DNA of 60,531 nucleotides from a virus (IMGVR_UViG_3300044457_000011:1-60531), one strand, 5' to 3'. Counted from the first letter of the stretch, positions 1-60,531 are shown. Notes: a model not told the origin generated them from the sequence alone. Program-made: numbers and translations.

Positions 1-127
1 TACAGCGTGTTGAGGTCCGAGCGGCGGATCCGCCAGCCGCGTCCGGTCTTGATGGCGGGCAGCGTACCGTCTCGCAGGAACCCTTTTAGCGTGGCCACCG
101 GCAGCCCGGAGTACTCGGCGGCCGCGT
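1..127. repeat. Terminal direct repeat, copy 1 (circular-assembly overlap)
   Basis: Bases 1-127 are identical to 60405-60531; 127 is a common assembler k-mer length. Confidence 0.95.
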
Positions 128-473
128 CCAGGGTTAAGAACAGCGGTTGCGGCGCCGGGCGGGCGGCGGCCTGCAGGAAGTCGATCAGGGCGGGCAGCGT
201 ACCGGCAGCGGCGCGAGGCGCCATCAGGGCCGTTTCGTTCGATGGCTCGGCGGATCCGGCCATGACGAACGGTTTGGGCTGCGCGGTGGCCGCTTCCAGC
301 TTGGCGACGTCCTCCGGATTCAGGACGGGCATGGGCCGCCGTCCGGAGACCCGGACATAGGCTTGTTCCAGGTCGCCGCGGGCGATCATGCGATCGATTG
401 TTTTGGTATGGACGCCGAGGCGCTCTGCGATGGACGCTTTCGAGGGCCAATCGACGTGGGTATCTTTTCTCAT
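1..473 (-). CDS. Double excisionase-like (HTH_17/MerR-superfamily) DNA-binding protein, 157 aa; stop codon completed across the circular junction
   Basis: Absent from the ORF track. My translation from ATG 473 gives MRKDTHVDWPSKASIAERLGVHTKTIDRMIARG...LFLTLDAAAEYSGLPVATLKGFLRDGTLPAIKTGRGWRIRRSDLNTL. The TAG uses bases 2 and 1 plus 60404. Two HTH-plus-wing patterns. Confidence 0.85.
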   Translation of the reverse strand, partial: MRKDTHVDWPSKASIAERLGVHTKTIDRMIARGDLEQAYVRVSGRRPMPVLNPEDVAKLEAATAQPKPFVMAGSAEPSNETALMAPRAAAGTLPALIDFLQAAARPAPQPLFLTLDAAAEYSGLPVATLKGFLRDGTLPAIKTGRGWRIRRSDLNTL

Positions 474-488
474 GCCACCGATGGTACG

Positions 489-522
489 GGACACGTTTCG
501 GCAAAGTCCAGTGGTGTCTATT
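489..522 (+). repeat. Degenerate copy of the dispersed 34-bp motif
   Basis: GGACACG-TTTCGGC-AAAGTCC-AG keeps the 7+7+7 arm spacing but has a different spacer; 15 bp upstream of the double-HTH start. Confidence 0.5.
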
Positions 523-616
523 TGCTGTCCCGATCAGCGGCCGCTATCACACCAGAAACGGAACAAGCCGTCTAACTCGATTCGGGTCAACGCGATGCTC
601 CGCTACTTTTAGAGAC

Positions 617-10300: not shown

Positions 10301-11573
10301 GATACGCTTCGCCCAATATACTGGCGAGGAGCCTAACGCGGGCCTGATCTCCTACCGGACGCTGGCCACCGACGCGCTGGCCCTGGTTGGCGCTGGCGCA
10401 TCCGCCGCCGGCCGCCTCATCCGGCTGTATGACGATGTAGTGGTTGCCCGTAATATGGCCGTCGATGGCACTTTATCCGCAGCGGGCGGGTTCGGCACGA
10501 ACGCCCTGCGCGTCATCAACGGCACGATGAATACCCAGGTATTCATCGGGAACGTCGGGCCGCGCCTATCCTTGGGGAATAACACGGACCACGCCACCTC
10601 AACCATGCGCTTGAACCTCGTCCTGGCGACCGGCCCCGGCGCGCAATACGGCCTCGCCAACGGGCATGCGTGGCTGTTCCTGGAACAAGCTGGTGGCGCG
10701 ATCAATATCGGGGTGCATCCAAACCAGACCATGCGAATCAGCGCCGGGAATGTCCTGATTACCGGGATCACCGCTGCCAACGCGGCGCTTACAATCGCCA
10801 CTGGATATATCGATTCGGGCGGGGGCTTTTATAGCGGGTCACCGGAGGCCGACTCGGTGCAAACAGTTGGTGGTTTCAAGGGAGCCAGATACACCTTCAC
10901 TAAAATCGCCTCACCGGGCGGGTCCGCTGTGAACGAGGCGCACATCTTTACCGATGGCGCGGCCCTCTGGGCATCGGTAAATGGCGGGACGCTGGTTAAC
11001 CTGATGTTGGCGGGCAGTGGCGGGGGCGGCGGGGCCGTCTCATCCGTGTCCGGCGGCACTGGCGTGACAGCGACCCCGACCACAGGCGCGGTGGTTGTTT
11101 CCATTGGCCAGAACGTGGCCACCAATGCCAATGTCACATTTAACGCTGTTACCACTGCGGGCGTCCATCAGTCCCAAGCCACGGGGACGAACGCCACATT
11201 CCAGAACACCAATTTCAACTTCAACGTGAATGGGAACGGAGCGGTAAGCGCCGTTGGAGCGATCAACTCCAGCACTGGCTTTAACGTCAAGAACAACGCG
11301 ATCATCTACCTGAACGGCACGACGAACGTAGAGATCGTCTCTAACAGGTACGCCTGTTATGGCAACCTCGCCGACGCCAGCATTTACTCCGACGGCGGGA
11401 TCACCTCCAACATGAACATGTACGCGAAGCAATTCGTTGTCAGGCTGGCAAATGGCACAACCCTGCCGGGTGTTGAGGACGAAGAGATTGAGATTCCAGG
11501 GGGGTTTCTGGTTCGGGGGGTACTCAGAACGAAGTTCCGAGTAAGCGGCGGGTTAGTAGTGAATGTCAATTAG
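4383..11573 (+). CDS. Large tail fibre/tailspike with N-terminal pectin-lyase-like beta-helix and repeated fibre modules
   Basis: 2396 aa. YLPWGVYPV...LIGDG beta-helix cap and Asn-rich rungs; repeated SVQ(W/F)ND.G.F.G modules; G/T/A-rich; overlaps the tip gene stop. Confidence 0.85.
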   Translation: MPDIQFPDASPYNPNVKFGERPSAFDFVPDQFWAGIRAGTGTTDLTGWVQDGLDSLGSVGGGILYLPWGVYPVRDLDVPAGVELIGDGRRRTFLRRQATLPPDRGLLNFAGDGSAVRKLAIDGMVVTPAAYTYAELTDPMEYKLTVDTSIWIHGGASDISIEQTLIYHTGGYAIAVDSRTGDIRRVLVSDADFENNRPNLAGMPGDLTAGGWGGGIHYQGDGVSHAVNGLHVDKSRFRRGTGNQLWGHLYDFGKLHTDIKATGCHFTDIGRDGIMLGGVSGGVVSDCHFRRIGYVCTDDTAPIGTPKWVSNQWAVGLDTAGLVRGVNYTNNTFLNCLGACMDGDGYAEGTVSGNICRVSKPDEPEYAEDNVAAWPKDSEKPSASYCYGFQTSNSNGIDWAARGANITGNYFYNLGLGAIRLYSARKCSAWGNTIWHPDESLAVPILMGNIGAGENQRAQDNSIGENTVHWNPAGQNPVVFEDRNTFAFASTDKNWVAGQRMFGTGMYEFRKDADTASITGRVYSSNVGGLTSRSENYLQREDGYLRMYGGDDALFTLLDQHLIANVGAGTTGGPLFNVSLNGVGGVITTGGRTTVVLDDVMATGVLYADQFFALTYATPFLDAKANLFDANTGLMRYNAVAKKFQISTAGGAGAGPRVWVDLGAGGSGAPGGPDQSVQWNDGGVFGGSADFLFNRTSKLLLVTEAIATGTRSALPISDVMATGVLYADQFLGLTYTAPFPDAKADLFDDTTGLMRYNSAVKRFQISTAGGAGAGPRVWVDMSAAGGGPGGPDQAVQWNDDGIFGGDADLVFNRTSKILRSTVALSTGARDSLAIADIVATGVLYGDCFLSLTNTTFDDTKANLLNDNWGLLRYDRTAKNFQVSTSVSAGARVWVNTNLQPVTPGSPLQSVQFNDDGVFAGNAEFSWNKTSKMLVVVGAIATGARTSLPFDDSLATGVVAADTFLSLTDTVPDPTKSNILPATYGLIRYLSADKKFQTSNSVTGFPAVRVWNDLYTGAAPVPGAPLQSVQFNDNSAFAGSANFSWNKTSNTLVVVGAIGLGVRTALPMTDLIASGVMSVDNFSTFTDGTFDGTKANLFDGSYGLIRFDKTLKKFQISTTVTTGPNARVWVDLYTGGAVVPGGVTNSVQYKTATGTFGGDSHITWDSVARILTVEGDTNNAASIYSSYGWIQSEHGFYSPMPVSDNVVNIPNGGVTARNLISIRDDEGPALKLARTTGSGGQSADFQWRIDAMGAMVLKDSKNSLDRLTLEQNGTFSFSGGDTNFVDISSTSGFVLASTSVSAPLLRASNANDTAIQATAGGIQVKSGAQVGQALYLKAYPDPLAGLNNPPTTEFGVAATFGGLAYKSGTQYRVWNGSAWTTVDFATVGGGVTSITGTANQIAATPATGAVTLTLPQDIAPISSPTFSYLNVTNVLYVRNVAGDMANYLRLFAYANTFYIAAVSSAGAGVGSALSFRTAPAQGDEIDRLRIGPTGTVYIFPFYQDDNNSGAILQVTGSVTATTGFNALTNTAPDAIQAKGGGVWAKKLIGDMALYMLGNAASSSLNNPSGTYGGLAYKSGTEYWLWNGVAWVSINFATVGGGVTSITGRVNQITASQATGAVQLTLPQDIATTSTVTFSSVYVTESVYVGNTGGDLNTTFRLDGAGGNVYLIAEGNLASAGAGIFFRTTVPGGTTGVDRVAINPYGQFLINTTGDGNGLNTTLQVGGFISTDSGLFTKSAATAPAAVPVSTYGGLAHRFGTTWWVTNASNVWTIVDLAGGSPGGQNGAVQFNSNSAFGGDGNLLWFDVQKGLSVGSGVMHTDGRLSASGIVYIGNGGDYLCLYQHTNDLLAIQTVIDNRNISSYFSGDGGAEASNVLVLQPFRGHVLITTTVAYDSARLSVAGSGYFWSQNPAQVALNIRAASGQTANLQEWKNYGGTPLTWVAPTGITTAPSFSAVTYQTPGVSVTIGQYYAREIRFAQYTGEEPNAGLISYRTLATDALALVGAGASAAGRLIRLYDDVVVARNMAVDGTLSAAGGFGTNALRVINGTMNTQVFIGNVGPRLSLGNNTDHATSTMRLNLVLATGPGAQYGLANGHAWLFLEQAGGAINIGVHPNQTMRISAGNVLITGITAANAALTIATGYIDSGGGFYSGSPEADSVQTVGGFKGARYTFTKIASPGGSAVNEAHIFTDGAALWASVNGGTLVNLMLAGSGGGGGAVSSVSGGTGVTATPTTGAVVVSIGQNVATNANVTFNAVTTAGVHQSQATGTNATFQNTNFNFNVNGNGAVSAVGAINSSTGFNVKNNAIIYLNGTTNVEIVSNRYACYGNLADASIYSDGGITSNMNMYAKQFVVRLANGTTLPGVEDEEIEIPGGFLVRGVLRTKFRVSGGLVVNVN
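6131..7860 (+). repeat. About five tandem ~118-aa modules in the fibre
   Basis: GGPDQSVQWNDGGVFGG-type motif starts at 6393, 6747, 7092, 7446 and 7800 (period 345-354 bp), each preceded by ...GL(M/L/I)R(Y/F)...FQ.S...RVW. A further copy of the motif is at ~9723. Confidence 0.9.
8454..9720 (+). repeat. Second fibre repeat family (GGLAYKSGT.Y..WNG..W...FATVGGGVTSITG..NQI.A..ATGAV.LTLPQDIA)
   Basis: Full copies at ~8454 and ~9087; partial copy at ~9627. Confidence 0.85.
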
Positions 11574-12486: not shown

Positions 12487-12643
12487 CGGCCGGCGGGAAA
12501 CATTCGCGAAGCGTCGAAAATTTTCCGGGTTCGTGGCTCCTCTCTCGCCGACCAGGGCCAATACGGATGCGGAAGGCCGCGGTTGGACGAGATCGCGGGC
12601 TGGATGGCCCTTCGATTGCCTACCCCCACCCACCCCCCCTAAC

Positions 12644-12790
12644 GGGTCCTTCCCCGCCCCCCGGGTCCTTCACGGGTTTCACCTCTGCGAAGTCGCGGTA
12701 GTTAGCTGACGATTTTTCTGGGTTGTCAAATTGGTGGGTTGACAACCAGTGGGTTTACAAAATGGCCCAAATCGCAGGTTTGGGTTGACA
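12644..12790 (+). other. Candidate lambda-type cos region (cosQ-like GGGTCCT, cosN-like segment, four direct repeats)
   Basis: GGGTCCT at 12644 and 12663; CACGGG...CGCGG; TGGGTT(G/T)(A/T)CA at 12719, 12735, 12750 and 12781; apparently non-coding region. Confidence 0.5.
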
Positions 12791-13017
12791 CGCCGGCGCA
12801 GGCGCAAAACGGCGCGGAATGAGGTCGCCGCCAAGGGTGAGGGGGTCACCCGATTCGCCTGGCCTGGCTAGGCGGCTAGATTTCAGCATGCCGCGTCCAG
12901 GCGGTGCGATGCAACGGAAAAGTGACTAACACTTTGGTCTAAAACGCTCTCTGCGTACGAACGGCGCCGCTCTCCACCGTGCCATGCTGATCCCGAAGGA
13001 GAATGAAAGGTGTACCA

Positions 13018-13479
13018 ATGAGCAAATTTGTGAGCCCTGAACCGGACGAAAACGCAACCGTCCATGACGCAGAAGTGCTGGTAGCCCAGCGCAGTCTGGT
13101 AAGTTTGCCCTACTATGGCATCTGCGCCGTGGGAGGCAACCAGATCATCGACCAAGACGACTTCGCCGCTAACGGGATCGACGGCAGCGAAGCTGTTAAC
13201 GTCAACATTCGCATCGTGCCGCCTCCCGACAATCCGACCTCCGCCTCGGTGAGCGGCTTCGGCGGGTACATCAACGTGGGCCGTACGGTTAAGGAACTTG
13301 GTGAAGCTCCGAGCATCCGGCAAGGGGTCATCGCTATGATCGAGAACGAGAACAACCAGATCGGCGTGGTCTACCATCCAGGGGAGGCTGAGGCCAAAGT
13401 GAACAACACACCGGGAGTCTGGGATGCCGCGGACGTGGCATTCGAGGAAGCCTGGGTCAAAGCTGGTAAGAACGCTTAA
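13018..13479 (+). CDS. Hypothetical protein
   Basis: GAAAGG upstream of ATG 13018; 153 aa, acidic, phage-typical codon use. Confidence 0.75.
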   Translation: MSKFVSPEPDENATVHDAEVLVAQRSLVSLPYYGICAVGGNQIIDQDDFAANGIDGSEAVNVNIRIVPPPDNPTSASVSGFGGYINVGRTVKELGEAPSIRQGVIAMIENENNQIGVVYHPGEAEAKVNNTPGVWDAADVAFEEAWVKAGKNA

Positions 13480-13564
13480 CCAACGCGGCACCTGATCGCA
13501 CCGTGGGCGGATCCGCCTCCGCCCCGATGCTTTCCTGGGTGCCCGAAGTCGTCACAGGTTAACC

Positions 13565-13819
13565 ATGACGCCAGCCTGGGTCCATCTAGTTGATCTGTCC
13601 CTTGCCGCGGCGATCGCGGCGGCCGCCGGGTATGGGATGTTTCGGTTGTTCGCCTCCACCGAAGAGGCGCGGCGGGCGCAAATGACCGAGTTCGTAAAGA
13701 TCCTGATTGACCAGATGGTGAAACGGCAAGACGAACAAGCGGCGGCAATCAGCGAGTTGAAGGACGCGGCTCTCTCGCTACGTGACGAGATCCGCTTCGG
13801 CCGCAGGGAGAACGGATGA
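13565..13819 (+). CDS. Single-TM coiled-coil membrane protein, holin-like
   Basis: N-terminal hydrophobic helix LVDLSLAAAIAAAAGYGMF followed by a charged heptad region. Confidence 0.5.
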   Translation: MTPAWVHLVDLSLAAAIAAAAGYGMFRLFASTEEARRAQMTEFVKILIDQMVKRQDEQAAAISELKDAALSLRDEIRFGRRENG

Positions 13820-13986
13820 CGGCCGCGATCGCCTATTGCCGGGCTCAGCAACTTCGGGCGGCCGGTGAGATTGTTGAGTTTGGATGGAACGAGCGCGGCG
13901 CCGTCCTCGGGATGGCGGATTACTTCGCCGAGGAGTTCCTTCTCGAGCAGGGTCTGGCGGCCGATCCTGAGCTCGTGCCGCGATAG
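13816..13986 (+). CDS. Hypothetical protein, 56 aa (below the ORF-track cutoff)
   Basis: ATGA overlap with the upstream stop; MTAAIAYCRAQQLRAAGEIVEFGWNERGAVLGMADYFAEEFLLEQGLAADPELVPR. Confidence 0.6.
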   Translation: MTAAIAYCRAQQLRAAGEIVEFGWNERGAVLGMADYFAEEFLLEQGLAADPELVPR

Positions 13987-13995
13987 CGCGGATCT

Positions 13996-14029
13996 GGACA
14001 TATGCCGCGAAAGTCACGACTGTCCAGAT
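13996..14029 (+). repeat. Dispersed 34-bp motif, copy A
   Basis: GGACATATGCCGCGAAAGTCACGACTGTCCAGAT. Confidence 0.9.
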
Positions 14030-14057
14030 CCGCTATCGCGGGAACCGTCCCGGTTAG

Positions 14058-14672
14058 TTACTTCGGACTGGGCGTCGGCGGGCCCGAAGGCAGTTGCGCC
14101 GGCCGCAGGCCGAAGTCGGGGCCGATCTCGGGGATCCAGATCCAGATGGGCTGGGTGGGTTTATCGCCGCCGCATCCGCCGCCGGTGACCGGGACGCCGT
14201 ACGACGGATCGACCGGCACCCAGTGGCCGGGCAAGGAGTTATCCGGCCGCGCCGGGTTGACTGGCACGCCGAAACCGGGATCGACCGGAAGCCAGCCGAA
14301 GACCGGGGGCAAACCGTAGCCGGGATCGACCGGCACCCAGCTTCCCGGGTAACTCGGCAGGTGGGAGGGGCGCAGGCCGCCGACGCCCCATTCCGGATCG
14401 ATGGGGAGGATGGGGACGCCGGGGGGTTTGATGGGATGAGTGGGACGCAGGCCGCCTTGGCCGTAGCCGGGGTCGACCGGGAATCCGCCGCCAGGGGCGA
14501 TGGGGTGAGAGGGGCGCAGGCCGCCCTGGCCGTAGCCAGGATCGACCGGTAATCCGCCGCCAGGGGCGATGGGATGAGCGGGGAAGCCTTCGTCAATGCC
14601 CCAGCCCGGGTCGACCGGACCGCCGGGGCCGCTGGTGTCACGGACCCAGCCGATAATTCTTCTCCAAGACAT
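14058..14672 (-). CDS. Pro/Gly-rich repeat protein (PVDPG[WYF]G and P[AST]HPI repeats)
   Basis: AAGGAG upstream of the ATG; seven P(V/I)DP.(W/Y/F)G units and a ~60-bp DNA period. Confidence 0.8.
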   Translation of the reverse strand: MSWRRIIGWVRDTSGPGGPVDPGWGIDEGFPAHPIAPGGGLPVDPGYGQGGLRPSHPIAPGGGFPVDPGYGQGGLRPTHPIKPPGVPILPIDPEWGVGGLRPSHLPSYPGSWVPVDPGYGLPPVFGWLPVDPGFGVPVNPARPDNSLPGHWVPVDPSYGVPVTGGGCGGDKPTQPIWIWIPEIGPDFGLRPAQLPSGPPTPSPK

Positions 14673-14747
14673 GATGGTAAATCTCCTTACTTCTTAGGCG
14701 GCACATCGTGCGCCGCCCGTCCGCTATTATGCGGTTTGGACATGTTG

Positions 14748-14781
14748 GGGCATTTGCCGCGCGAGTCACGATTGTCTCGAT
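14748..14781 (+). repeat. Dispersed 34-bp motif, copy B
   Basis: GGGCATTTGCCGCGCGAGTCACGATTGTCTCGAT. Confidence 0.85.
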
Positions 14782-14849
14782 GGCGCATAAACGTCTCACG
14801 GAAAAGGCAGAATGTCTCATCGAAACGCATAATCGTGTCTGAGGAACGC

Positions 14850-15086
14850 ATGAACATGAATACTGACCGCGATTGGTTGTTGAAGAAGGCCGAGCAAGAG
14901 GATGGATGCGTGGTTTCCGTGGGCGGACTTGTCACCGCACTGGCTATTGACGGCGGTCATATATGGGAAGGCCGGTTGAACTTTTCCATGTGCCGAGTCT
15001 GCGGAATCATACGAAGGCGAGACGATAAAAACTCGCCATGCAAAGGCCCTACACGACTACGGTCCATGGAATCCGCCGAGGGTTGA
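14850..15086 (+). CDS. Hypothetical protein with H/C cluster (possible Zn binding)
   Basis: GAGGA upstream of ATG 14850; H.W...CRVC...C. Confidence 0.6.
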   Translation: MNMNTDRDWLLKKAEQEDGCVVSVGGLVTALAIDGGHIWEGRLNFSMCRVCGIIRRRDDKNSPCKGPTRLRSMESAEG

Positions 15087-15106
15087 GTTACGGCGGGAGG
15101 TTTGCG

Positions 15107-15523
15107 TTGAAACGACTTAAGCGGCTGTGGTGCTCATGGTTCGGCCATCATCCGTATGTTGGCGACTTTCTGAAAGGGCGTTGCCTGTTTTGCGGAGATT
15201 CGTGGGAATTAAGGTGGACCCCACCGCCGCCACCGCCACCGCCGCCGCCGCCGCCGAGACCTTCAAGCCAACGCAGCAGGTATACTCCGGTCATACGTAA
15301 ATTCACAGCGGTGATGCAAAACGGCTCACACATTAAGTACGTACAGATCGAAGCGAAGAATCTTTCGTCGACTCCGCACGGCGTAACCCTGCATACCGAA
15401 GATGACGCGCAAGTTGCCTTCTTTCCATCGGGCAACCTACTGGGCGTTTGGGATGCCGATTTGGAAGTCAAGCAGGCGGCCGCGGCGTATCCACCGCCAA
15501 CGAGATCCAGTGTGGTCGGTTAG
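15107..15523 (+). CDS. Hypothetical protein: N-terminal C/H zinc-knuckle-like segment, 12-Pro linker, beta-rich C-terminal domain
   Basis: GGAGG upstream of TTG 15107; LWCSWFGHH...CLFC; poly-Pro at 15221-15256. Confidence 0.65.
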   Translation: MKRLKRLWCSWFGHHPYVGDFLKGRCLFCGDSWELRWTPPPPPPPPPPPPRPSSQRSRYTPVIRKFTAVMQNGSHIKYVQIEAKNLSSTPHGVTLHTEDDAQVAFFPSGNLLGVWDADLEVKQAAAAYPPPTRSSVVG

Positions 15524-15573
15524 ACATTCTGGCGGCCGATCCGAAAATGTGCAGCGCGAGTAACAATAGCGGG

Positions 15574-15831
15574 ATGGCTAATCCCAAACGGTTATTGATG
15601 GCTGAGCAGTGGAATCTGTTCTCGAGGGCGATCGGACTCGCTGACAAGTCGGCAACGCAGCGCCGTGAAATGAGGCGGGCGTTTTATGCGGGCGCCCAGT
15701 GCATTTTGTTTCGGGTGATAGCGAGCTTCGCGCCGGAGGCCGAACCAACGGATGAGGATCTCGCGGTCATGCAAGGCATTGAAGATGAGCTTTCCGAATT
15801 TGCGGAGCTAGTGAAAAACGGCCGGGCCTGA
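15574..15831 (+). CDS. Hypothetical phage protein
   Basis: 85 aa containing QRREMRRAFYAGA, a pattern I associate with small phage hypotheticals. Confidence 0.7.
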   Translation: MANPKRLLMAEQWNLFSRAIGLADKSATQRREMRRAFYAGAQCILFRVIASFAPEAEPTDEDLAVMQGIEDELSEFAELVKNGRA

Positions 15832-15842
15832 ATCCGACTCGC

Positions 15843-16394
15843 TCAGTTCGGTACGCCCAGTGACCGGTTGAATAGCTTTGATGGACCGCTATACTCGTGC
15901 GGGCTGAAGAACACCTCTTCGCGGTTGCCGAGGACGATGCGGCCGTCCCGGCGATCAAACCTCTGGATCAGCCATATACAGCCGGCCGCCGATTCCGCGG
16001 AAACGGAGATGGCTTGCACACTTCCCTTCACATCGTCTTGTTTGACGGCCTCTTCGGACATTGTTCGGATTAACTTCTCGGGGTTATATGCGGGCGTAGT
16101 TGTTCCTTCGCAGTAGGTGATTTCAGTTGCTATTACTATCGCCGTCGCGCACAGTTCTTTCACTTGATCGGCCATGAAATCATAAAACCTGTGTACGGTG
16201 TCCCGGCTGGATAGCAGTAAAAATAGCGTCCGGTGAGGGAGATCAAGGAGAGCCGTCTGATTACCTTTTACCAGTTGAACTACGGGCCGCATGGGGACAT
16301 CAGTAGCGATCGGCACTTCGTCCTCCAGGCACACGAGCATCAAGTAGGCCAACTCGCGCAGATCATCTGGTCCTGGTGGTTCGGTTTGTTTCAT
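15843..16394 (-). CDS. Hypothetical protein
   Basis: 183 aa; GGAG upstream of the ATG; globular composition. Confidence 0.7.
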   Translation of the reverse strand: MKQTEPPGPDDLRELAYLMLVCLEDEVPIATDVPMRPVVQLVKGNQTALLDLPHRTLFLLLSSRDTVHRFYDFMADQVKELCATAIVIATEITYCEGTTTPAYNPEKLIRTMSEEAVKQDDVKGSVQAISVSAESAAGCIWLIQRFDRRDGRIVLGNREEVFFSPHEYSGPSKLFNRSLGVPN

Positions 16395-16412
16395 CGCTCC
16401 AGTATAGAGGCC

Positions 16413-16452
16413 AAGAAAAAGGGGCCACGTTCTGTGATACGTGGCCCGTTTT
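16413..16452. terminator. Probably bidirectional intrinsic terminator
   Basis: A-tract, GGGCCACGT-loop-ACGTGGCCC, then TTTT. Confidence 0.7.
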
Positions 16453-16564
16453 GCCGTTGGGTGTGGGCCTCATGCCATTAAGGGTGAGGTGACCGTGCCG
16501 CGCGCCCCTCTAATATCTCATGGCTCTCCCGATCCGGGTCCACATTGTTAGCCGGTTTAAGTAC

Positions 16565-16598
16565 GGACATTTACCGCGATTGTCCAGACTGTCTGGAT
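16565..16598 (+). repeat. Dispersed 34-bp motif, copy C
   Basis: GGACATTTACCGCGATTGTCCAGACTGTCTGGAT. Confidence 0.85.
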
Positions 16599-16668
16599 TA
16601 TGTGGTGGTTCCGGTAAGCGCCATTATCGGAAACCCGCGTTCTCAGTGTTTTCAACGGGTTGCGTGGT

Positions 16669-17046
16669 TCACGCCGCTTTGGGTTTCTTTTTCTTCCGTT
16701 CTGGCGGAGGCAACAGGGCGGCGCCGAGTATATGGCTGGTGCAGACGGGCGTGCCGGGGATATGGATCTTGGCGGACGGCCGTAGGGTGTACGTGGACTC
16801 CTCCATGACGCAAAAGCTCCAGCGCTGCGTCCACATCACTTTTCGGCGTCGGCCGCATTCGGCGCATGGCACCGGTTTGGAGTAGCGGATGAATGAAGTC
16901 GCGCGGTGCTGCTCCTCCGTAAAAAACGGGTTTGGTTTCGGGGGAAGGAATTCAACCAGCAGAGTCAACTCCTGCAGATCGATGCCGCTATCGTCGGCCG
17001 TGTGGTTTAGCTTTGTAGGCACTTTTTCTCCCTTGGTTTCGGTCAT
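16669..17046 (-). CDS. Hypothetical protein with CxxC...CxxH (possible Zn finger)
   Basis: CAEC...CTSH and a basic C-terminus. Confidence 0.65.
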   Translation of the reverse strand: MTETKGEKVPTKLNHTADDSGIDLQELTLLVEFLPPKPNPFFTEEQHRATSFIRYSKPVPCAECGRRRKVMWTQRWSFCVMEESTYTLRPSAKIHIPGTPVCTSHILGAALLPPPERKKKKPKAA

Positions 17047-17051
17047 GGTTC

Positions 17052-17085
17052 GGACATATGCCGCGAAAGTCTAGAGTGTCTCGAT
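17052..17085 (+). repeat. Dispersed 34-bp motif, copy D
   Basis: GGACATATGCCGCGAAAGTCTAGAGTGTCTCGAT. Confidence 0.9.
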
Positions 17086-17102
17086 TCCATACAATCAACG
17101 GG

Positions 17103-17693
17103 CTAGAGTCGAGTACTTCCCTTCCTTCGACTAGATTTGGCATGGGGAAGTAGGCGACACTCCCATGCTTCTTCCTTCATGGTTTGGCCAGCGGCCCAGT
17201 TTGGCCGTGGAGATCCGCTAATTACCCAACCAGGGCAAACTCCAATTCCGTTCGCACGTAGCTCCTTCTCATCATGGCTTACGAACCTCCGTAGCCGGGC
17301 GTCCTCTTGAAAGCCTTGTCCGTGCCGGAACACAAGAACGCTGATAATCCAGACGAGGCCGAAATTACGCGCGTAGTCGGTGGAGATCGAGTAACCGCAC
17401 ACTTCACCTCTCCATAGGCTGAGCAGGTCTTTAGTGTTGGGAAATACATCGACCATGAATCCATACCCGGGCAGTTCTCGCTCTCCGTGCCAGATCGCCG
17501 TCTTTCCGCAGGCAGTCTGGTAGAAGCGGCTTAGTTCGGCGGCCGGCAGCGGCTTTGGGACGTAGTAATAGCAACCCGGCCCGTCCGCGATAGTAGGCTC
17601 AATTAAGGCCATTCGAGTGTCCCTCACATTCGATTGGTTTGGGCCCGGTCGATTCCAGCCGGCCGGGCCACACCCAGGATAGTGGTTCGGCAT
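17103..17693 (-). CDS. Hypothetical protein (alternative start 17612)
   Basis: The only long ORF between motif copies D and E; no motif recognised. Confidence 0.6.
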   Translation of the reverse strand: MPNHYPGCGPAGWNRPGPNQSNVRDTRMALIEPTIADGPGCYYYVPKPLPAAELSRFYQTACGKTAIWHGERELPGYGFMVDVFPNTKDLLSLWRGEVCGYSISTDYARNFGLVWIISVLVFRHGQGFQEDARLRRFVSHDEKELRANGIGVCPGWVISGSPRPNWAAGQTMKEEAWECRLLPHAKSSRRKGSTRL

Positions 17694-17718
17694 AGGGACG
17701 GCAATAGGGTCCAGATCT

Positions 17719-17752
17719 GGACTTATGCCGCGAAAGTCCAGTCTGTCTAAAT
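17719..17752 (+). repeat. Dispersed 34-bp motif, copy E
   Basis: GGACTTATGCCGCGAAAGTCCAGTCTGTCTAAAT. Confidence 0.9.
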
Positions 17753-17795
17753 TCCACGTCCAGAAGAAAAGGGTCTTTCCTTTGTTTGGAGTATC

Positions 17796-18695
17796 GTGGC
17801 GGATATGTCAACCGGCCCGTCGAAAACGTTGTGCTGGACCTGTGGCGGCATTGGGACCATCGCCGGCAGCGTAAATTCAAGCCTTGATCTGCCGCCGGAA
17901 CAATTTCACGCAGAGTTAGAGGCGGCGAGGAAGCCCTGTCCGGAGTGCGGCGGGTCATCGGCCGCTTTACTGCCAGATAGTGCCTGCAAACTCTGCAAGG
18001 GAACCGGCTGGCTCACGGCCGAACGCCGCGGCTTTACCGGGTCACAACTGTGTGAGTGTCAGTTTCCGAAATTCCGGAAGGAGAATCTCGGAGCAGCCAA
18101 TATCCCGCCTCTTTACGAGCGCGCTTCCTTCGACAGTTTCAAGACCAGTGGGCTCCAGTCGCTGTCGAACGTATTTTTTTTGGTCAAAGAATACGCGGAG
18201 AGTTACCTTCAACTGCCTGACCGGCCTGGCCTTTTGTTGATGGGTCAATGCGGTACCGGAAAGACTCATTTAGCTGTCAGTGCACTTAAGCGGATGATTC
18301 AGATGGGCGCTTCCGGCATGTTCGTGGACTATCACGAGCTACTGGACGACATCATGCAAAGTTTCAAATCGGACTCGGGAGAAAGCGACCAAGACATCTA
18401 TTCGAGGGCTAAAAATGCGGAAGTTCTCGTTCTCGATGACCTCGGATCGAACAGGTCGACCGAATGGATCGTGGATTCGGTAACCAGCCTCTTGACCTAC
18501 CGCTGTAATCACCGCTTGATTACAATCGCCACCACCAATTGCCTTCAGGCGCCGCCCATTGACGCCCCGAAAGACAGGACCATTGTGGACTACATAGGCG
18601 ACCGCGGCTGGTCGCGTATCAAGGAAATGTGCACGATTGTAGACGTTCCTTACGACGTGGCCGACTACCGCTGCCGCTCCGTTAAGTTCAGGTGA
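17796..18695 (+). CDS. DnaC/IstB-like AAA+ ATPase (helicase loader) with N-terminal Zn motifs
   Basis: Walker A GQCGTGKT, Walker B VLVLDDLG, TTN, RGWSRIKEMC; three CxxC and one CxC. Confidence 0.92.
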   Translation: MADMSTGPSKTLCWTCGGIGTIAGSVNSSLDLPPEQFHAELEAARKPCPECGGSSAALLPDSACKLCKGTGWLTAERRGFTGSQLCECQFPKFRKENLGAANIPPLYERASFDSFKTSGLQSLSNVFFLVKEYAESYLQLPDRPGLLLMGQCGTGKTHLAVSALKRMIQMGASGMFVDYHELLDDIMQSFKSDSGESDQDIYSRAKNAEVLVLDDLGSNRSTEWIVDSVTSLLTYRCNHRLITIATTNCLQAPPIDAPKDRTIVDYIGDRGWSRIKEMCTIVDVPYDVADYRCRSVKFR

Positions 18696-18698
18696 TAT

Positions 18699-18732
18699 GG
18701 ACATTTGCCGCGCGAGTCCAGACAGTCCCGAT
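18699..18732 (+). repeat. Dispersed 34-bp motif, copy F
   Basis: GGACATTTGCCGCGCGAGTCCAGACAGTCCCGAT fills the gap between two convergent stop codons. Confidence 0.9.
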
Positions 18733-19181
18733 TAGCCTGGATTCAACCGCTTACGGGCGGTACTTACCTTTTTCCCCCTCGATTTGAGGGCCGGCGGCCG
18801 CTCCTGCAGCGGGTAGAACCAATGCACGATTTGGCCTTCGAACGGCAACGTGTTGTTCTCGAGCCAGAAGTCGTACATCTCGCGAATGTGGCTGAAGCCG
18901 TCGGCGCGGGCGAGTTGGTCGGCTTCGCTGTCGTCCAGCCGGCGGCCGTCGATGGCGATCGCCAGGCGGAACGGCGCCGTGTCCAAGTCGATCGCGACGT
19001 CCTCGACGCTCCGGGCGGTCGTGTAGCCGATGAACCGGCGTCCCTTCGTTCGCATCGAGACCCACAAAAACAGCGCATCGCCGGCGCGGAATCGCCGTTT
19101 CCGGTTGCCACGGATAGTGTGACGCTTGGTTCCGGCGTGAACCGGTTGCTCAAAACGCGGTTTGAAGCTCAGTCCTGGCAT
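18732..19181 (-). CDS. ASCH/PUA-like domain protein
   Basis: LSFKPRF...GTKRHTIR...GD.L...ARADGF, the ASCH GxKxxTxR motif. Confidence 0.85.
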   Translation of the reverse strand: MPGLSFKPRFEQPVHAGTKRHTIRGNRKRRFRAGDALFLWVSMRTKGRRFIGYTTARSVEDVAIDLDTAPFRLAIAIDGRRLDDSEADQLARADGFSHIREMYDFWLENNTLPFEGQIVHWFYPLQERPPALKSRGKKVSTARKRLNPG

Positions 19182-19365
19182 CTCACCAGCTTAGACGTTC
19201 GAATTGCGCCAGTACTTCGGGAATGCTGGGCGCTCCGGCTTATGTTGTGGGCGTCGCTTGCCATCAGTTAGGAGGCAGGCTTAGGATCCCAATCCTCCGC
19301 TGAACGACGCCCTCAACAACATTTCCATTTAACCACAGACCCCGAGAATACTGCTCGAAATCTTG

Positions 19366-20361
19366 CTAACCGAGTGCCTTCTGCAGCGGGTTATGCTTCC
19401 AAATCGTAGCGGGCCGGACATACCGTGCGACGCTCGCTAAGCTCTTGTGACCGCTCAGCTTCATGATGACGCTCTCGGCCGTGCCGCCTTCGATGGCGGC
19501 CGTGATACACCCGGAGCGGAGCGAGTGCGGCGCGTAGCGGGTGGCATCCAGGCCGATCGATTCCGCCGCGTTTTTGACTACTTTCCAGATGCTGCGGTCG
19601 CCGAGACGTTTTCGAGCCTTGGTTTTGGTGGCGTTGGGGCTCAGGTTTGTGAAGAGTGGCCCATTTTTATGCCCCCTGATTGCCATCCACTTCTCCAGCG
19701 CCGCCACCGGACAAGAGCTCGCCTTGGAGCTCCGAAATACGCCGATTATCCGTCCTTTGCCTTCCTGGTCGGTCTTGCTCCTTCCGATTTGAACTCGCAC
19801 GCCTTTCGTCAGGATGTCGAGATCGTCAACGTCCAGGGCCGAGAGCTCTGACCTGCGCATTGCGGAGGCGAAACCGAACAGCAGGATAGCCTTATTACGG
19901 ACGCCAACATCGGTCTTTGGCTGCTTGGCGATCATAGCTCGGAGTTGTTCCGGAGTGATGGCGTCTTTTCCGGCCGCACGGGTTCCCTGCTCGCGTCGCG
20001 CGCCAGCCAGGATGTTAGATATCTGGCGGTCATCGGTAGGTGTCGCCAGCTGCTGCTCCAGATGTTTGTGCCGGATCGCCGCCACACGGCGCTCGGCCGT
20101 GCCAACGCGCATAGTTTCGAGCACCTCCGCCAGATAGAGCGCGACGGTGGCCGGTTTCGCCGGCAGTGACTCTCGCCCGGCGTCCGTGCACCAAGCGCTG
20201 AAGGACCGCCAGTCGCTATCGTAGGCGCGAATGGTCGCCTTGGCCCGGCGGCCCGCGGTAATGCGGTCGATGGCCTTAGACAATCGGCCCATATCGGGTC
20301 CGGTTTCGAAAAGCGATAGTTGCTCCGGCTCTGGGCCGTCAGCGGATGGTACCCATGGCAT
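19366..20361 (-). CDS. Tyrosine recombinase, Cre-like (core-binding and catalytic domains, no arm-binding domain)
   Basis: TIRAYDSDWRSFSAWC; catalytic R (MRRSEL), K (SKTDQ), HSLR, GH and Y (ARY). Confidence 0.95.
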   Translation of the reverse strand: MPWVPSADGPEPEQLSLFETGPDMGRLSKAIDRITAGRRAKATIRAYDSDWRSFSAWCTDAGRESLPAKPATVALYLAEVLETMRVGTAERRVAAIRHKHLEQQLATPTDDRQISNILAGARREQGTRAAGKDAITPEQLRAMIAKQPKTDVGVRNKAILLFGFASAMRRSELSALDVDDLDILTKGVRVQIGRSKTDQEGKGRIIGVFRSSKASSCPVAALEKWMAIRGHKNGPLFTNLSPNATKTKARKRLGDRSIWKVVKNAAESIGLDATRYAPHSLRSGCITAAIEGGTAESVIMKLSGHKSLASVARYVRPATIWKHNPLQKALG

Positions 20362-20525
20362 AGGTCACGGATCATCATCGCACAACTTGTCGAAACGGTT
20401 ACAACAACCTGCTAATATGACTTCTCAGAGCCATTGGTCGGGCGCGCCGCTATGTTACTTTCTAGGTTCCATGGCCGCCCGATTGGTCGCTAAACCCATG
20501 CCATGGGTACAACCTAGGAGTTCGC

Positions 20526-21737
20526 ATGAGCCGTTACGCGGAACCACCGCGCGTCAACAAAAACCCGCCCGAAGAGGCAAAATCCGGAACCTGTAATATA
20601 TGTTATCGGAACCCGCATATCGGCCAAATTGACCGGTTTCAGGCGGTCCGGGCTGTCGCTCGTGGATTGAACGAAGTGGAGCTCAAGGTCATCATAGAGC
20701 TCGCCGAGCTGGCGGTCAACAATCCGGATTTTTGTTGTTCGGTGAGCTCGCGCGAGCTTGCAAAAACAACGGGTTGTGCACGGTCAAGCGTTAAAGAGGC
20801 GCTCGAGGCTCTAATTGCGAAGTGCATTATTGCTAGTCGTACTGGGGGGCCAAAGTCGGCGACGGTGTACATGGCTAATTTCCTAAAGACGTTTATTTTC
20901 GCCTCGTATTCGGGTGGACCGGAATTCGGTCCACCCCCCATCAACGTAGACCTGAAGGTGGACCGGAATTCGGTCCACCCCCCCGTCCCACGCATACCCG
21001 AAGGTGGACCGGAATTCGGTCCAGGTGGGCCGGAATTCGGTCCACCCCTCAATCCGGAACCTATTGATTCTGCTCAATCTGGCACTTTGGCCAAAAACGT
21101 GCTTTTCGATCGATTAGAAGTATCTACTAATAGAGAAGTATTCGATCGAACGCGTGCGCGCGGGATTACTCCTGTGGAAAATCCGGTCCAAGACGCGCTT
21201 TTCGATGGTTCCGTCCGGCTTGTGGATGCCTTTAAAGATCGAGGAGCAGAAAACCCGATCGAATCCATGCTGAAAGCGAATCCGAAACGCTTCTCCCGCG
21301 CGGAGATAGATTTGGCGAAGCGGTGGATGTACAGCCTGGCCATGAAGCTGAGGAGAGAAAAACCCAAAGAAGCGCCGGACGACAAAATCGTCGCCCAGTT
21401 CCTGGGGATTGCTCCCTGGCCGCGGTTGCTCGCATTTTTGAACGACATCCAAATCGAACGGCTGGAGGTCGGGTATAGCTACGGCTGGTATCTGACGGTG
21501 GCTCTCCAAAGAATCTACGGGATCGAGTGGAGTCCGGCCCGCCAGCGGGCCGCTGAGCGGGAAGCGGCGCAACTGCGAGTCGTATCTCGACCGGAACCAC
21601 CGCCGCCGGCGCCCCCGGAGCCGTTAGTCCAGAGCGGGCTCGACTTCCCCGCCCCAGATATAGACCCGGCGGAAGGCCGGGATTTCGCGGCCGATCTGCT
21701 CGATAAGCTGAAACGGGCGAAATCCGGATTCAAATGA
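20526..21737 (+). CDS. Putative replication initiator (N-terminal wHTH, internal iterons)
   Basis: AGGAG RBS; SSRELAKTTGCARSSVKEALEAL HTH; central DNA repeats as in lambda O-type genes; DnaC-like gene nearby. Confidence 0.75.
   Translation: MSRYAEPPRVNKNPPEEAKSGTCNICYRNPHIGQIDRFQAVRAVARGLNEVELKVIIELAELAVNNPDFCCSVSSRELAKTTGCARSSVKEALEALIAKCIIASRTGGPKSATVYMANFLKTFIFASYSGGPEFGPPPINVDLKVDRNSVHPPVPRIPEGGPEFGPGGPEFGPPLNPEPIDSAQSGTLAKNVLFDRLEVSTNREVFDRTRARGITPVENPVQDALFDGSVRLVDAFKDRGAENPIESMLKANPKRFSRAEIDLAKRWMYSLAMKLRREKPKEAPDDKIVAQFLGIAPWPRLLAFLNDIQIERLEVGYSYGWYLTVALQRIYGIEWSPARQRAAEREAAQLRVVSRPEPPPPAPPEPLVQSGLDFPAPDIDPAEGRDFAADLLDKLKRAKSGFK
20912..21046. repeat. Four palindromic iteron-like repeats (putative replication origin)
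   Basis: GGTGG(A/G)CCGGAATTCGGTCCA(CC) at 20913, 20957, 21003 and 21024. Confidence 0.85.
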
Positions 21738-23309: not shown

Positions 23310-23812
23310 TTCCTGCCCTTCAAACTGATCTGGGTGCCGACTTGTCTTCCCTCAAGCGCGATTTGCTGTTCGCCCGGTACGGCTGCAGCGCATGTATGGT
23401 TTCCCTCACGGCTGTTTCCGGAGATTTCGGTACGCCTGACTCATCCATCGGCAGAATAGTTGTAAAGCTGTAGTGCTAAGCCCGCAGCCGACGCGGTGAA
23501 TTTTGCCCGGATTCGGCCCTCAGCGCGTTTCCAGGCGATCAGATGGCCTCGTTTACCCATCCGCGTCGTTTGGGCGCGTCCCGGGCCGTTTCTCGGCGAG
23601 TACAAGCTCTAACATGCAGGCGGTTTGTTAAAGCTTCACTTTTACCGCCGAATAAGCGAGTGGCAGCTGCAATTGCGACCCGACGAAGGTACAGCGGCCG
23701 TCGGCGGGCGGGCAGAAGTGTCGGATTTTGGCAAGACGCTGGGCGTGGCTTCCTATTTGGTGACACAACCCTGACACATCGCGAATATTTCGGCTGGCGC
23801 TTCGTTTGTGAC

Positions 23813-28467: not shown

Positions 28468-28574
28468 TGGCTGGAAGTGTAATAGGTTTGAAAGTAGTCT
28501 CGTTTCTTCACGGTGTTGAATTTAGACAAGATGTTTAAGTTATTGTCATTGCGTCGTTAAATTTCGGAGGCCAT
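28468..28574. promoter_or_regulatory. AT-rich divergent promoter region
   Basis: Separates the leftward and rightward operons; much more AT-rich than its flanks; contains a GACAA...TTGTC inverted pair. Confidence 0.55.
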
Positions 28575-28754
28575 ATGGACCAAGCACAGATTTCGGAATT
28601 AGAAAGGAAAGCGGCCATTAGCACGCTGGAATCCTTTGCTCGGTGGCTGGACGCACAGGCGGATCCGTGCGAAGCGCCCGACGAATTACGCCGGCGAATC
28701 GTGGCGTTGCAGAGCGTTGGCGCCAGCCATACGGCCGCTGGCACCACATGCTGA
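28575..28754 (+). CDS. Hypothetical protein, 59 aa (not in the ORF track)
   Basis: GGAGG RBS; MDQAQISELERKAAISTLESFARWLDAQ...; ATGCTGA overlap with the next gene. Confidence 0.6.
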   Translation: MDQAQISELERKAAISTLESFARWLDAQADPCEAPDELRRRIVALQSVGASHTAAGTTC

Positions 28755-44726: not shown

Positions 44727-45262
44727 AGGAGGCCGGGCCGCGGTTTATGAATATCTGCGCCGGCGATCGCGTCTTTCCCGGATGGGAATCGACCGACATC
44801 GCACCCACCGATCCGCGCGTCCTGATGGCTGACGCCACTTCCCTGCCCTACGCCGACGCCACCGTCGACGTCGTCATGATGAGTCACGCTTTGACGAACC
44901 TCGACCGGGTCAAGAACGGATGGCGGCGCTGTTTTGAAGAGGTGCACCGGGTGTTACGGCCGGGCGGCTGTTTCCGGATCGATGACGCGCCCGAGCGGTG
45001 GTACGTGACGGACGAGCAAGGCATGCCCATTATCGAGCCGGACTTCGCAGCCTACGCCAAGCCGCGGGGTTGGGTGGTGCGGGCGCTTTATATGTCCGGC
45101 TTCAGCGAAGTGTTTTCGGTGAATCCCGCGACCACCTCTATTCCCGCGTTGCTCGACACCTTCACCTACAGCGCCGAGGAACGGTGGCAACTCGAGCACG
45201 GTCTAATCGGCAACAAAAGCTGGCACGTATCTTTCACGCTCGAAGCGGTGAAGGCGCTGTAA
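44723..45262 (+). CDS. Class I SAM-dependent methyltransferase
   Basis: NICAG, TDI, DATSLPYADATVD...SH.L, EVHRVLRPGG; GTGA coupling. Confidence 0.88.
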   Translation: MKEAGPRFMNICAGDRVFPGWESTDIAPTDPRVLMADATSLPYADATVDVVMMSHALTNLDRVKNGWRRCFEEVHRVLRPGGCFRIDDAPERWYVTDEQGMPIIEPDFAAYAKPRGWVVRALYMSGFSEVFSVNPATTSIPALLDTFTYSAEERWQLEHGLIGNKSWHVSFTLEAVKAL

Positions 45263-45280
45263 TCGGGACAGTCCGGACAA
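45261..45280 (-). repeat. Half copy of the dispersed motif (right-hand arms only)
   Basis: Minus strand reads TTGTCCGGACTGTCCCGATT. Confidence 0.5.
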
Positions 45281-47671: not shown

Positions 47672-47872
47672 ATGAAGTTTCGGGATCTCACCAAGTTAAT
47701 TGAAGCGGATGGATGGCAGTTGGCCCGTCAAAAAGGTTCGCACGCACACTACACCCACCCGGTGAAACGAGGTTCGGTGACTATCGCTGGCCACCCTGGC
47801 GATGATGTACGGCCCGGAACATTAGCTTCGATTTGCGAACAAGCCCAGATACCGAAACCGAAAAGGAAATAA
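47672..47872 (+). CDS. hicA: HicA toxin (mRNA interferase)
   Basis: LIEADGW..RQKGSH...HP...VTI..HP..D...GTL.SI. Confidence 0.95.
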   Translation: MKFRDLTKLIEADGWQLARQKGSHAHYTHPVKRGSVTIAGHPGDDVRPGTLASICEQAQIPKPKRK

Positions 47873-48819: not shown

Positions 48820-48920
48820 AGAACGTGTCGCCGAAATCTGCCTGCAGCGCGTAAACGCGCCGCGATTGTGTTTGCCAGCATATGGGCGTGGGATCCCCCA
48901 ACGCCGTAGGAGGCGACACG

Positions 48921-54402: not shown

Positions 54403-54481
54403 ATCGGGACTCTCGGGACAATCGCGGCTTATGTCTCGAAACGGGGAATCGGGACTCTCGGGACAATCGCGGCTTATGTCC
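54403..54481 (-). repeat. Two tandem inverted copies (G, H) of the dispersed motif
   Basis: An exact 33-bp repeat ATCGGGACTCTCGGGACAATCGCGGCTTATGTC at 54403 and 54448 matches the reverse complement of the motif. Confidence 0.9.
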
Positions 54482-59963: not shown

Positions 59964-59966
59964 TTT

Positions 59967-60200
59967 TTACAGTTTCTCGATGTCGCTTCTACGGATCCGC
60001 AATCCGCGCCAGTCGGTAACCTCCGACAACCGGCCATCGCGCAGGAGGGTTCTCAAGGCGCCCACTGGGAGTCCGGAGTATGCAGCGGCCGCAGTCAGGT
60101 CGAGAAGGTCCTCGTTTTCATCCTGGCCTGGTGCGGGTTCCCGCTGATCTCCGTGGATGGGTTCTTTCTTTTTCATCACTGCTGTCAGCATATGGAACAC
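59967..60200 (-). CDS. Excisionase-like HTH_17 protein, paralogue of the C-terminal HTH of the junction gene (start uncertain)
   Basis: LLDLTAAAAYSGLPVGALRTLLRDGRL....WRGLRIRRSDIEKL. Confidence 0.75.
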   Translation of the reverse strand: MFHMLTAVMKKKEPIHGDQREPAPGQDENEDLLDLTAAAAYSGLPVGALRTLLRDGRLSEVTDWRGLRIRRSDIEKL

Positions 60201-60230: not shown

Positions 60231-60264
60231 GGACTTTTGCCGCGAAAGTCCAGACTGTCTCTAA
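60231..60264 (+). repeat. Dispersed 34-bp motif, copy I
   Basis: GGACTTT-TGCCGCG-AAAGTCC-AGACTGTCTCTAA, with perfect 7-bp arms. Confidence 0.9.
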
Positions 60265-60404: not shown

Positions 60405-60531
60405 TACAGCGTGTTGAGGTCCGAGCGGCGGATCCGCCAGCCGCGTCCGGTCTTGATGGCGGGCAGCGTACCGTCTCGCAGGAACCCTTTTAGCGTGGCC
60501 ACCGGCAGCCCGGAGTACTCGGCGGCCGCGT
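60405..60531. repeat. Terminal direct repeat, copy 2 (circular-assembly overlap)
   Basis: Identical to bases 1-127. Confidence 0.95.

Follow-up and report, generated by a model that had tools for sequence, protein, structure and literature searches.

A motif of 34-38 bp recurs between the genes of a phage known from the IMG/VR virus record IMGVR_UViG_3300044457_000011:1-60531 (60,531 bp, rated as 100% complete; this whole stretch is called the window below), and comparison with related metagenomic contigs shows that the motif is a shared island at which units consisting of a gene and a motif copy are gained, lost, duplicated and exchanged. The motif can be classed as a boundary module that is prone to recombination; it belongs to a hyperplastic region of a new phage lineage, and its three-arm architecture is distinct. 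We infer further that it would bind a protein, would have a regulatory effect and would recombine by homologous rather than site-specific crossover. The corresponding explanation, that the motif is a regulatory protein-binding module upstream of accessory genes and that its repetition drives shuffling by ordinary recombination, similar to that of promoter early stem-loop (PeSL) elements, has in our judgement an even chance of being correct.

The motif has the formula TCNGGAC-WTWW GCCGCG NNN-GTCYNGA-NW-GTCYNGA(T), with three bases to the left of the 34-bp copies included. Its arms are three copies of one 7-mer, GTCYNGA, the first of which is inverted and the other two of which are direct at a 9-bp period. 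This period of the direct arms is found in all copies, and further arms are present, 10-23 bp apart, at copies B, E and 489. The 7-bp spacer between the inverted arms, TGCCGCG, is identical in six of the nine full copies, and its first base is different in the inverted pair H/I. Firm symmetry of the arms is limited to TCNGGAC/GTCCNGA, 13 bp apart, and the arm frame GTC-NN-GAC is itself quasi-palindromic. When the window was searched with a degenerate 30-nt pattern at up to three mismatches, nine full copies were found (copies A to I, Table 1). A weight matrix finds the same nine sites at 46.8-58.9 bits, with the next best site at 11.7 bits. None of 100 dinucleotide shuffles gave a pattern match, and the reversed pattern, used as a control on the window, gave none either. 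These searches confirm the nine full copies that had been listed in an earlier reading of the DNA by a model (the sequence-only reading). The half copy listed in the same reading is real as well, being a right half (arms 2 and 3) with no mismatch; the right-half pattern has 15 matches in the window, as compared with 2.07 expected. The degenerate copy at 489, which was read by eye and is under the threshold of the matrix, keeps the three arms at a 10-bp arm period and has lost the GCCGCG core. The arm 7-mer alone occurs 114 times, as compared with 66 +/- 8.7 expected, and 32 of these 114 occurrences are located in the approximately 8% of the genome that is called intergenic. Copies H and I together form a 45-bp tandem duplication of the motif plus 11 bp (54403-54481).

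About 24 of the 34 positions are held across the copies despite their unrelated flanks, and also across phages whose flanks differ by 11-25%. Arms 2 and 3 stand alone both at 45262 and at the E position of one related contig (L067, see below), suggesting that these two direct repeats form a separate module. This conservation and the two solitary occurrences of arms 2 and 3 suggest that the motif is a protein-binding module. All eleven sites, namely the nine full copies, the half copy at 45262 and the degenerate copy at 489, are located between gene calls, and the intergenic location stated in the sequence-only reading holds for 9/9 full copies when our own gene calls are used. Likewise, copies A and F do lie between convergent stop codons, and the array of six copies (A to F) does end near the recombinase gene, 634 bp from its stop codon.

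The metagenome collection gave 28 loci, of which seven carry the full motif (L052, L053, L057, L064, L066, L067 and L068). These seven contigs align to the window in a mosaic fashion, at 74-89% identity. In L066, one decayed copy accompanies six good ones, and all seven have the same orientation, as in the window; in the L066/L057/L067 lineage, four copies do not differ at any of the 34 bp. The L057 and L066 contigs are 96.8-99.3% identical over 5.3 kb, the difference being a single unit of 285 bp at the position of copy F. This unit, which is present in L066 and absent from L057 and the window, consists of one motif copy and a leftward gene of 79 aa that has a good Shine-Dalgarno sequence, and the alignments of L057 with L066 overlap by 38 bp of motif. 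In L053, the left flank of copy A is joined to the right flank of copy B through a single motif, and there is no counterpart of the gene at 14058-14672. The slot between copies A and B contains one rightward gene in L052 and two in L066, which are unrelated. L064 contains one copy where the window has the H/I tandem. Between L067 and L068, an identity of 97% extends through the final base of a motif copy, past which the sequences are unrelated; between L066 and L068, an identity of 95% sets in with the first base of a motif. L067, L068 and three other contigs have record names with a common prefix, so that one assembly probably contains two cassette variants. The motif is the only sequence common to otherwise unrelated neighbouring genes, suggesting that the units are exchanged by recombination within it. 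Thus, the cassette-like units bounded by the motif, as proposed from the window alone, find their counterpart in the gene content of related phages, where turnover and homology break at the motif edges. L066 encodes a homologue of the gene between copies D and E, at 63% identity over 156 aa.

The ends of homology were counted in high-scoring segment pairs of at least 150 bp among the relatives and the window, and an end was taken as being at the motif when it was located in a copy or within 10 bp of it. Of the internal ends, 15/60 are at the motif, as compared with 0.5-9% of each sequence that is this close to it. When the segment pairs have an identity of at least 93%, five of six internal ends are located within 3 bp of a motif edge. 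The recombinant motifs of L066 (F' and F'') and L053 are identical or too alike for a crossover to be placed in them. The half-site junction of L067 is located at the edge of arm 2, outside the spacer. In the probable source sample, the Logan contigs are colinear with the window across the whole array of six copies and contain no recombinant joints, although such contigs are uninformative on rare excised forms. Two joints that were listed for these contigs are cross-matches of other motif copies, not deletions. Within the array, the source-sample contigs break only at a (CCG)n tract (15216-15265), which encodes a proline run.

A second recurrent breakpoint, which is intragenic, is observed downstream of copy B. 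The 70 bp after this copy carry ACGCATAA-like and GTCTCR repeats (14782-14937). This stretch and the first 28-30 codons or so of the open reading frame (ORF) 14850-15086, which are the only part of the ORF common to the relatives, are conserved in L052, L053, L066 and L068 (72-81%). The homology stops at 14931-14937 in all four relatives, and the rest of the ORF differs. L068 contains two paralogs of this ORF family in adjacent units.

The position of the copies relative to genes is consistent with a regulatory role. A start codon is located 5-170 nt away on at least one side at 9/11 sites of the window (Table 1), the exceptions being copies A and F. These two are exactly the slots where L066 and L052 hold cassettes with a gene start beside the motif; rightward genes of both contigs start just right of the orthologue of copy A. 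For copy D, the GTG at 17022 is a further possible start, with the Shine-Dalgarno sequence AAGGGAG. Extra arms between copy B or E and the adjacent starts cluster upstream of genes; they are GTCTCR arms at approximately 14793, 14814 and 14837 after copy B, and arms at 17709 and 17758 flanking copy E. Where a site of the window is crossed by transcription in one direction, its motif is antisense to the genes in 6/6 cases, and F'' of L066 and the copy of L064 keep the same rule. The cassette genes are of mixed orientation and have their own Shine-Dalgarno sequences, and the orientation of the motif in the array is constant whatever the orientation of the genes, both in the window and in L066. 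Such a constant orientation would be maintained if direct copies recombined repeatedly.

These results are consistent with the following mechanism. The motif would be a composite protein-binding site of approximately 38 bp, in which three GTCYNGA arms surround an A/T-rich tract and GCCGCG, and it sits 5' of nearly every accessory gene or small operon. A DNA-binding protein of the phage would read it as a common operator, the best candidates being two paralogs of the HTH_17 family. Recombination within the motif would delete, insert, duplicate and swap gene-plus-motif units, and the crossovers would be driven by homology rather than be site-specific, as for PeSLs.

The two HTH_17 genes encode a 157-aa protein with two such domains and a small paralog of 69-73 aa, which matches the C-terminal domain of the former at 57% identity over 46 aa. 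Both genes are preceded by a motif copy (489 and G, respectively). These proteins probably read the motif. The HTH_17 family includes Xis and BldC, and BldC is reported to bind 9-bp direct repeats head to tail (PMC5859096). Small MerR-like winged helix-turn-helix proteins without a dimerisation domain are encoded in the window, and in this respect the candidate readers resemble BldC and the small MerR-like protein Gp36 of phage D29, which is described as a phage-encoded repressor that binds direct repeats and represses the genes downstream of its site (PMC12266134). The two direct arms at 9 bp are comparable to the BldC protomer repeat AATTXXXX(C) as given in PMC5859096. The motif differs from the BldC and Gp36 sites described in these papers in that its arm sequence is unrelated and that it has an extra inverted arm and the conserved GCCGCG core. 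A search against solved structures gave no match of the HTH_17 proteins to BldC or Xis (best E value 0.6). The sequence-only reading had offered two hypotheses, a cassette excision or shuffling system with the recombinase acting on the motif, and an operator or stoperator network read by Xis/BldC-like helix-turn-helix proteins. The second appears to fit the sequences better. The copy before each HTH_17 gene, the 9-bp arms and the extra arms upstream of genes speak for it; a strict orientation rule of the stoperator type is broken in relatives.

Several results weigh against a regulatory module shuffled by homologous recombination. Sense-direction crossing is observed at A' and B' of L066, in L053 and in L052, so that the orientation is not strictly tied to transcription. 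No copy is present in the main divergent control regions (20362-20525, 23310-23542 and 28468-28642), suggesting that the motif is not the central immunity operator. In the region of 12500-20600, sigma-70-like promoters are found at three sites, as compared with 2.8 expected, and none of them is at a copy, although this consensus may not be that of the host. Spacings of sigma-54 and extracytoplasmic function types do not fit either, as judged by eye against the consensus. A conserved hairpin is not found: seven of the nine copies fold no better than shuffles (10 to 177 of 200), and the pairing partners differ among copies. The motif had been called structured, and as a conserved hairpin this does not hold, because only copy A stands far out (z -7.5, 0/200 shuffles) and copy E is marginal (4/200). 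Because neither a sigma-70-like promoter nor a conserved hairpin is present, the argument for a regulatory role is one from position only. No run with a match was obtained when RNA runs were searched for the window sequence. Genes for phage recombination proteins of the Erf, RecT or Red-beta type were not detected by Pfam or PHROGs among the scanned proteins, in a genome with many ORFs that belong to no family. Finally, 45/60 homology ends are away from the motif; many of them are in the motif-free region of 19-24 kb, and several recur at 14931-14937 inside the ORF mentioned above.

The geometry of two arms around 7 bp, the invariant GCCGCG and the nearby Cre-like gene fit a recombinase site as well, and this also counts against a purely regulatory module. 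Core sites of tyrosine recombinases consist of inverted arms around an asymmetric spacer of 6-8 bp, FRT has a third direct arm, and the symmetric arms of lox or FRT are 11-13 bp long. The motif resembles FRT/loxP, attC arrays and the sfx sites of shufflons in having inverted arms, a 7-bp asymmetric spacer and, like FRT, a third direct arm; several sites lie close to a simple recombinase, and the units comprise one or a few genes. According to this alternative, which we regard as unlikely, a Cre/Xer-like recombinase binds the inverted arms, cuts flanking TGCCGCG and moves circles of gene plus motif, and the third arm and the HTH_17 proteins serve as accessory or directionality elements, so that the phage has an integron- or FRT-like layout. 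The recombinase is indeed of the simple Cre/Xer type without an arm-binding domain. Its closest solved structures by sequence are Cre (2e-11, residues 49-316) and then XerD (2.3e-9), so that the label of a Cre-like recombinase given to it earlier is a fair one. The closeness of the array to this gene, the common spacer and the constant orientation of the array copies agree with such a system. So does the most recent indel, that between L057 and L066, which is recombinase-proximal, comprises exactly one unit and, with the window as the outgroup, is most simply read as an insertion. The symmetric arms of the motif are, however, much shorter than those of lox or FRT (4-7 bp), and the right arm is freely variable in its inner 3 bp (AAA, CGA, ATT, CTT, CGC, AGA). 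The half copies retain arms 2 and 3 instead of arm-spacer-arm, and the L067 junction is at the edge of arm 2. Copies of both orientations, inverted and direct, occur together, and the inverted copy of L064 has the common spacer, so that inversions of the tail operon would be possible. The motif is present at 0/24 IMG/VR loci that carry relatives of the integrase (27-41% identity). A 30-mer repeat search, which detects the array of the window, finds no dispersed repeat at 18/24 of these loci; of the other six, two are compositional noise on inspection (L031 and L032) and four have single local clusters (L014, L017, L026 and L028). Copies G, H and I and the sites at 489 and 45262 are located 19-41 kb from the array, in tail and accessory regions, and the source-sample contigs lack recombinant joints, which they could not reveal if rare. 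The recombinase is under all NCBIfam cut-offs, with 19.6 bits for the integron-integrase model TIGR02249, whose cut-off is 265. An integron is further disfavoured by the lack of an attC-like fold and by the mixed-orientation genes with their own ribosome-binding sites. It is doubtful that a phage-borne, integron-like system of gene capture exists here, in which the Cre-like recombinase, aided by the Xis-like HTH_17 proteins, inserts and excises single-gene circles at an FRT-like, three-armed site of 34 bp and thereby builds up accessory genes into an array beside its own gene. Homology-driven crossovers are preferred because 38 bp of identity are available, the half sites ignore the putative core, inverted copies coexist and the relatives of the recombinase lack arrays. 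As for an attP beside the recombinase, only a 13-nt palindrome is found (19277-19296). Precisely where the recombinase gene has its stop codon (19366 in the window), L057 (900-997) and L066 (4316-4413) contain approximately 97 additional bp, which may represent a different attachment-site region.

Three further explanations were weighed, each of which is much less probable. The motif could itself carry a host-type promoter and/or terminator for each cassette, as a composite of the PeSL type. Like PeSLs, it lies upstream of accessory genes and is associated with cassette turnover, and copy A forms a strong hairpin between convergent genes; the absence of a sigma-70-like hexamer pair at any copy, the poor folding of 7/9 copies and the distance of just 5-29 nt between motif and start codon at 45262, D, I and 489 make this improbable. 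There is a similarly small chance that the copies are binding sites for a structural phage protein, either of the ParB-N-domain type (KorB- or Noc-like) or HTH_36 initiator-like, and form a centromere, silencing or roadblock array. A 567-aa ParB/Noc-like protein with a helix-turn-helix is encoded, six copies are clustered beside replication genes and the arm frame is quasi-palindromic. Nevertheless, general family scans of the window proteins recognise no ParA partner for any of the three ParB-N-domain proteins, the site departs from a simple palindrome, and the copies follow accessory gene boundaries instead of forming one centromere-like block. It is also hard to believe that the motif is a selfish miniature repeat or a pure recombination linker, with individual copies that have no function. 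Decayed copies (489, a weak copy shared by L066 and L068, and b of L052), the H/I tandem duplication and the four identical copies of the L066/L057/L067 lineage would be expected of such a repeat, but the positions conserved between unrelated flanks and across phages would not; a motif-only insertion with contiguous flanks was not seen, and host genomes contain no copies. Of 185,579 reference genomes (species representatives), none has more than one match; the loose 30-nt pattern gives 18 single-match loci of mixed phyla. On this ground, a host repeat, which had been named as an alternative, is not supported. The strict pattern has no match in IMG/VR, and the loose pattern matches two loci there, which have no similarity to the window. 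A look-alike in an archaeal metagenome-assembled genome (L033 = L074, 3186-3215, - strand) includes flanking bases and is not accompanied by a second copy; its 40 bits are close to the chance level for approximately 1.2e12 positions, and it was discarded.

Of the known systems, the one closest to the motif in its working is found in T4-type phages, namely the PeSL regulatory cassettes (Arbiol et al. 2010, PMC2839356; Comeau et al. 2014, PMC4122927). Both are repeated intergenic modules of a variable region, upstream of genes without known homologues. In both, a gene flanked by two modules in one phage corresponds to a single module in a close relative; ORFans flanked by PeSLs are reported to be replaced by a single PeSL in a sister phage, and recombination between PeSLs is the mechanism proposed for shuffling in T4-type phages (PMC2839356). 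They differ in that PeSLs are described as sigma-70 promoters with stem-loop terminators, conserved over approximately 100 bp, in lytic myoviruses, whereas the motif comprises 34-38 bp with three short arms and a GC core, has no promoter consensus or conserved hairpin and occurs in a temperate siphovirus-like genome beside a Cre-like recombinase. According to the same PeSL papers, mini-circles have been physically shown for PeSLs, whereas the units described here are known from assembled contigs. The motif shares with the stoperators of cluster A mycobacteriophages (PMC9283540) an asymmetric site repeated in short intergenic gaps and an orientation tied to transcription, the latter at the 6/6 co-directionally crossed sites of the window. 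Stoperators are described there as 13-mers that are bound by a monomer, exceed 20 per genome and have a strict orientation. The motif, in contrast, is composite, has 9-11 copies, is absent from most of the genome and breaks the orientation rule at four sites of relatives.

Most phage genes of unknown function are located in variable regions, and their movement is poorly understood outside the case of the T4-type PeSLs. The motif provides a second, structurally different example of such boundary modules, for which natural variants show that one-gene units are added or lost exactly at 38 bp. The system is small and well defined, comprising a single motif, two HTH proteins as candidate readers and a simple recombinase. 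If the recombinase were responsible, it would represent a new kind of gene-capture device and a possible tool for multi-site recombination.

Table 1. Motif copies, cassette units and other genes of the window. Distances are those between the motif and a start codon, on the GGAC side unless stated otherwise.
Feature	Position	Strand	Distance (nt)	Setting or basis
Motif copy A	13996..14029	+		between convergent stops 13986 (+) and 14058 (-)
Motif copy B	14748..14781	+	75; other side 68	divergent gap; - gene start 14672, + gene start 14850
Motif copy C	16565..16598	+	170	upstream of - gene start 16394; after stop of - gene 16669-17046
Motif copy D	17052..17085	+	5 to ATG 17046; 29 to GTG 17022	between two - genes
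Motif copy E	17719..17752	+	25; 106 to homologue-supported start 17612; other side 43	divergent gap between - gene 17103-17693 and DnaC-like + gene 17796
Motif copy F	18699..18732	+		between DnaC-like stop 18695 and ASCH gene stop 18732
Motif copy G	60231..60264	+	43-55	upstream of small HTH_17 gene; downstream of two-domain HTH_17 gene
Motif copy H	54403..54436	-		first of tandem pair; right after stop 54399 of + gene; 30-nt match 54407-54436
Motif copy I	54448..54481	-	18	upstream of ATG 54500 of gene preceding tape measure; 30-nt match 54452-54481
Right-half copy	45262..45278	-	12	arms 2+3 only; between stop 45262 and ATG 45291
Degenerate copy	489..533	+	15	arms GGAC, GTCCAGT, GTCTATT, GTCCCGA; upstream of HTH_17 gene start 473
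Unit A-B gene	14058..14672	-		Gly/Pro-rich, no family
Unit B-C	14850..16394	three + ORFs, one - ORF (15843-16394)		no family match
Units C-D and D-E	16669..17693	-		two genes without family matches
Unit E-F, DnaC-like helicase loader	17796..18695	+		family scan
ASCH gene	18732-19181	-		family scans
Simple tyrosine recombinase	19366..20361	-		Phage_integrase and weak SAM-like N domain
HTH_36 initiator-like gene	20526-21737			family scans
ParB-N-domain protein, 567 aa	26546-28249	-		ParB/Noc-like with helix-turn-helix
ParB-methyltransferase fusion	29481-30785	+		ParB-N-domain
Small and large terminase, portal, protease	32.3-38.9 kb			family scans
ParB-like nuclease type	48882-49763	+		ParB-N-domain
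Tape measure	54954-59543			family scans
Small HTH_17 paralog gene	59966..60188	-		22 bits, below cut-off 27
Gene of 157-aa protein, two HTH_17 (excisionase/MerR-like) domains	3..473	-		Pfam 4e-15
Tail genes	617-11573			family scans

The phage is an uncultured soil phage, for which the family scans of the window proteins give a temperate, siphovirus-like layout. It has no cultured relatives by DNA, its array region has no DNA match, and in a comparison of its terminase with 50,697 phage records the identity does not exceed 31%. Queries with the DnaC-like and initiator proteins gave no relatives in IMG/VR. The ends of the record overlap by 127 bp (1-127 = 60405-60531). The two-domain HTH_17 gene crosses the record ends, with its stop codon spanning the junction, suggesting that the 127-bp repeat is the overlap of a circular or permuted assembly and not a gene boundary. 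Copy A is located inside an inverted repeat with arms of approximately 20 bp (13975-14050, -32.5 kcal/mol) between convergent genes; at this one site, the repeat may serve as a terminator for both directions. At 16422-16447, between copy C and the start of the gene 15843-16394, there is a strong hairpin, with an A-run and a T-run, that is followed by TATACT. An ORF with a HicA toxin domain (47672-47872, Pfam 3e-22) is located amid glycosyltransferase-like genes.

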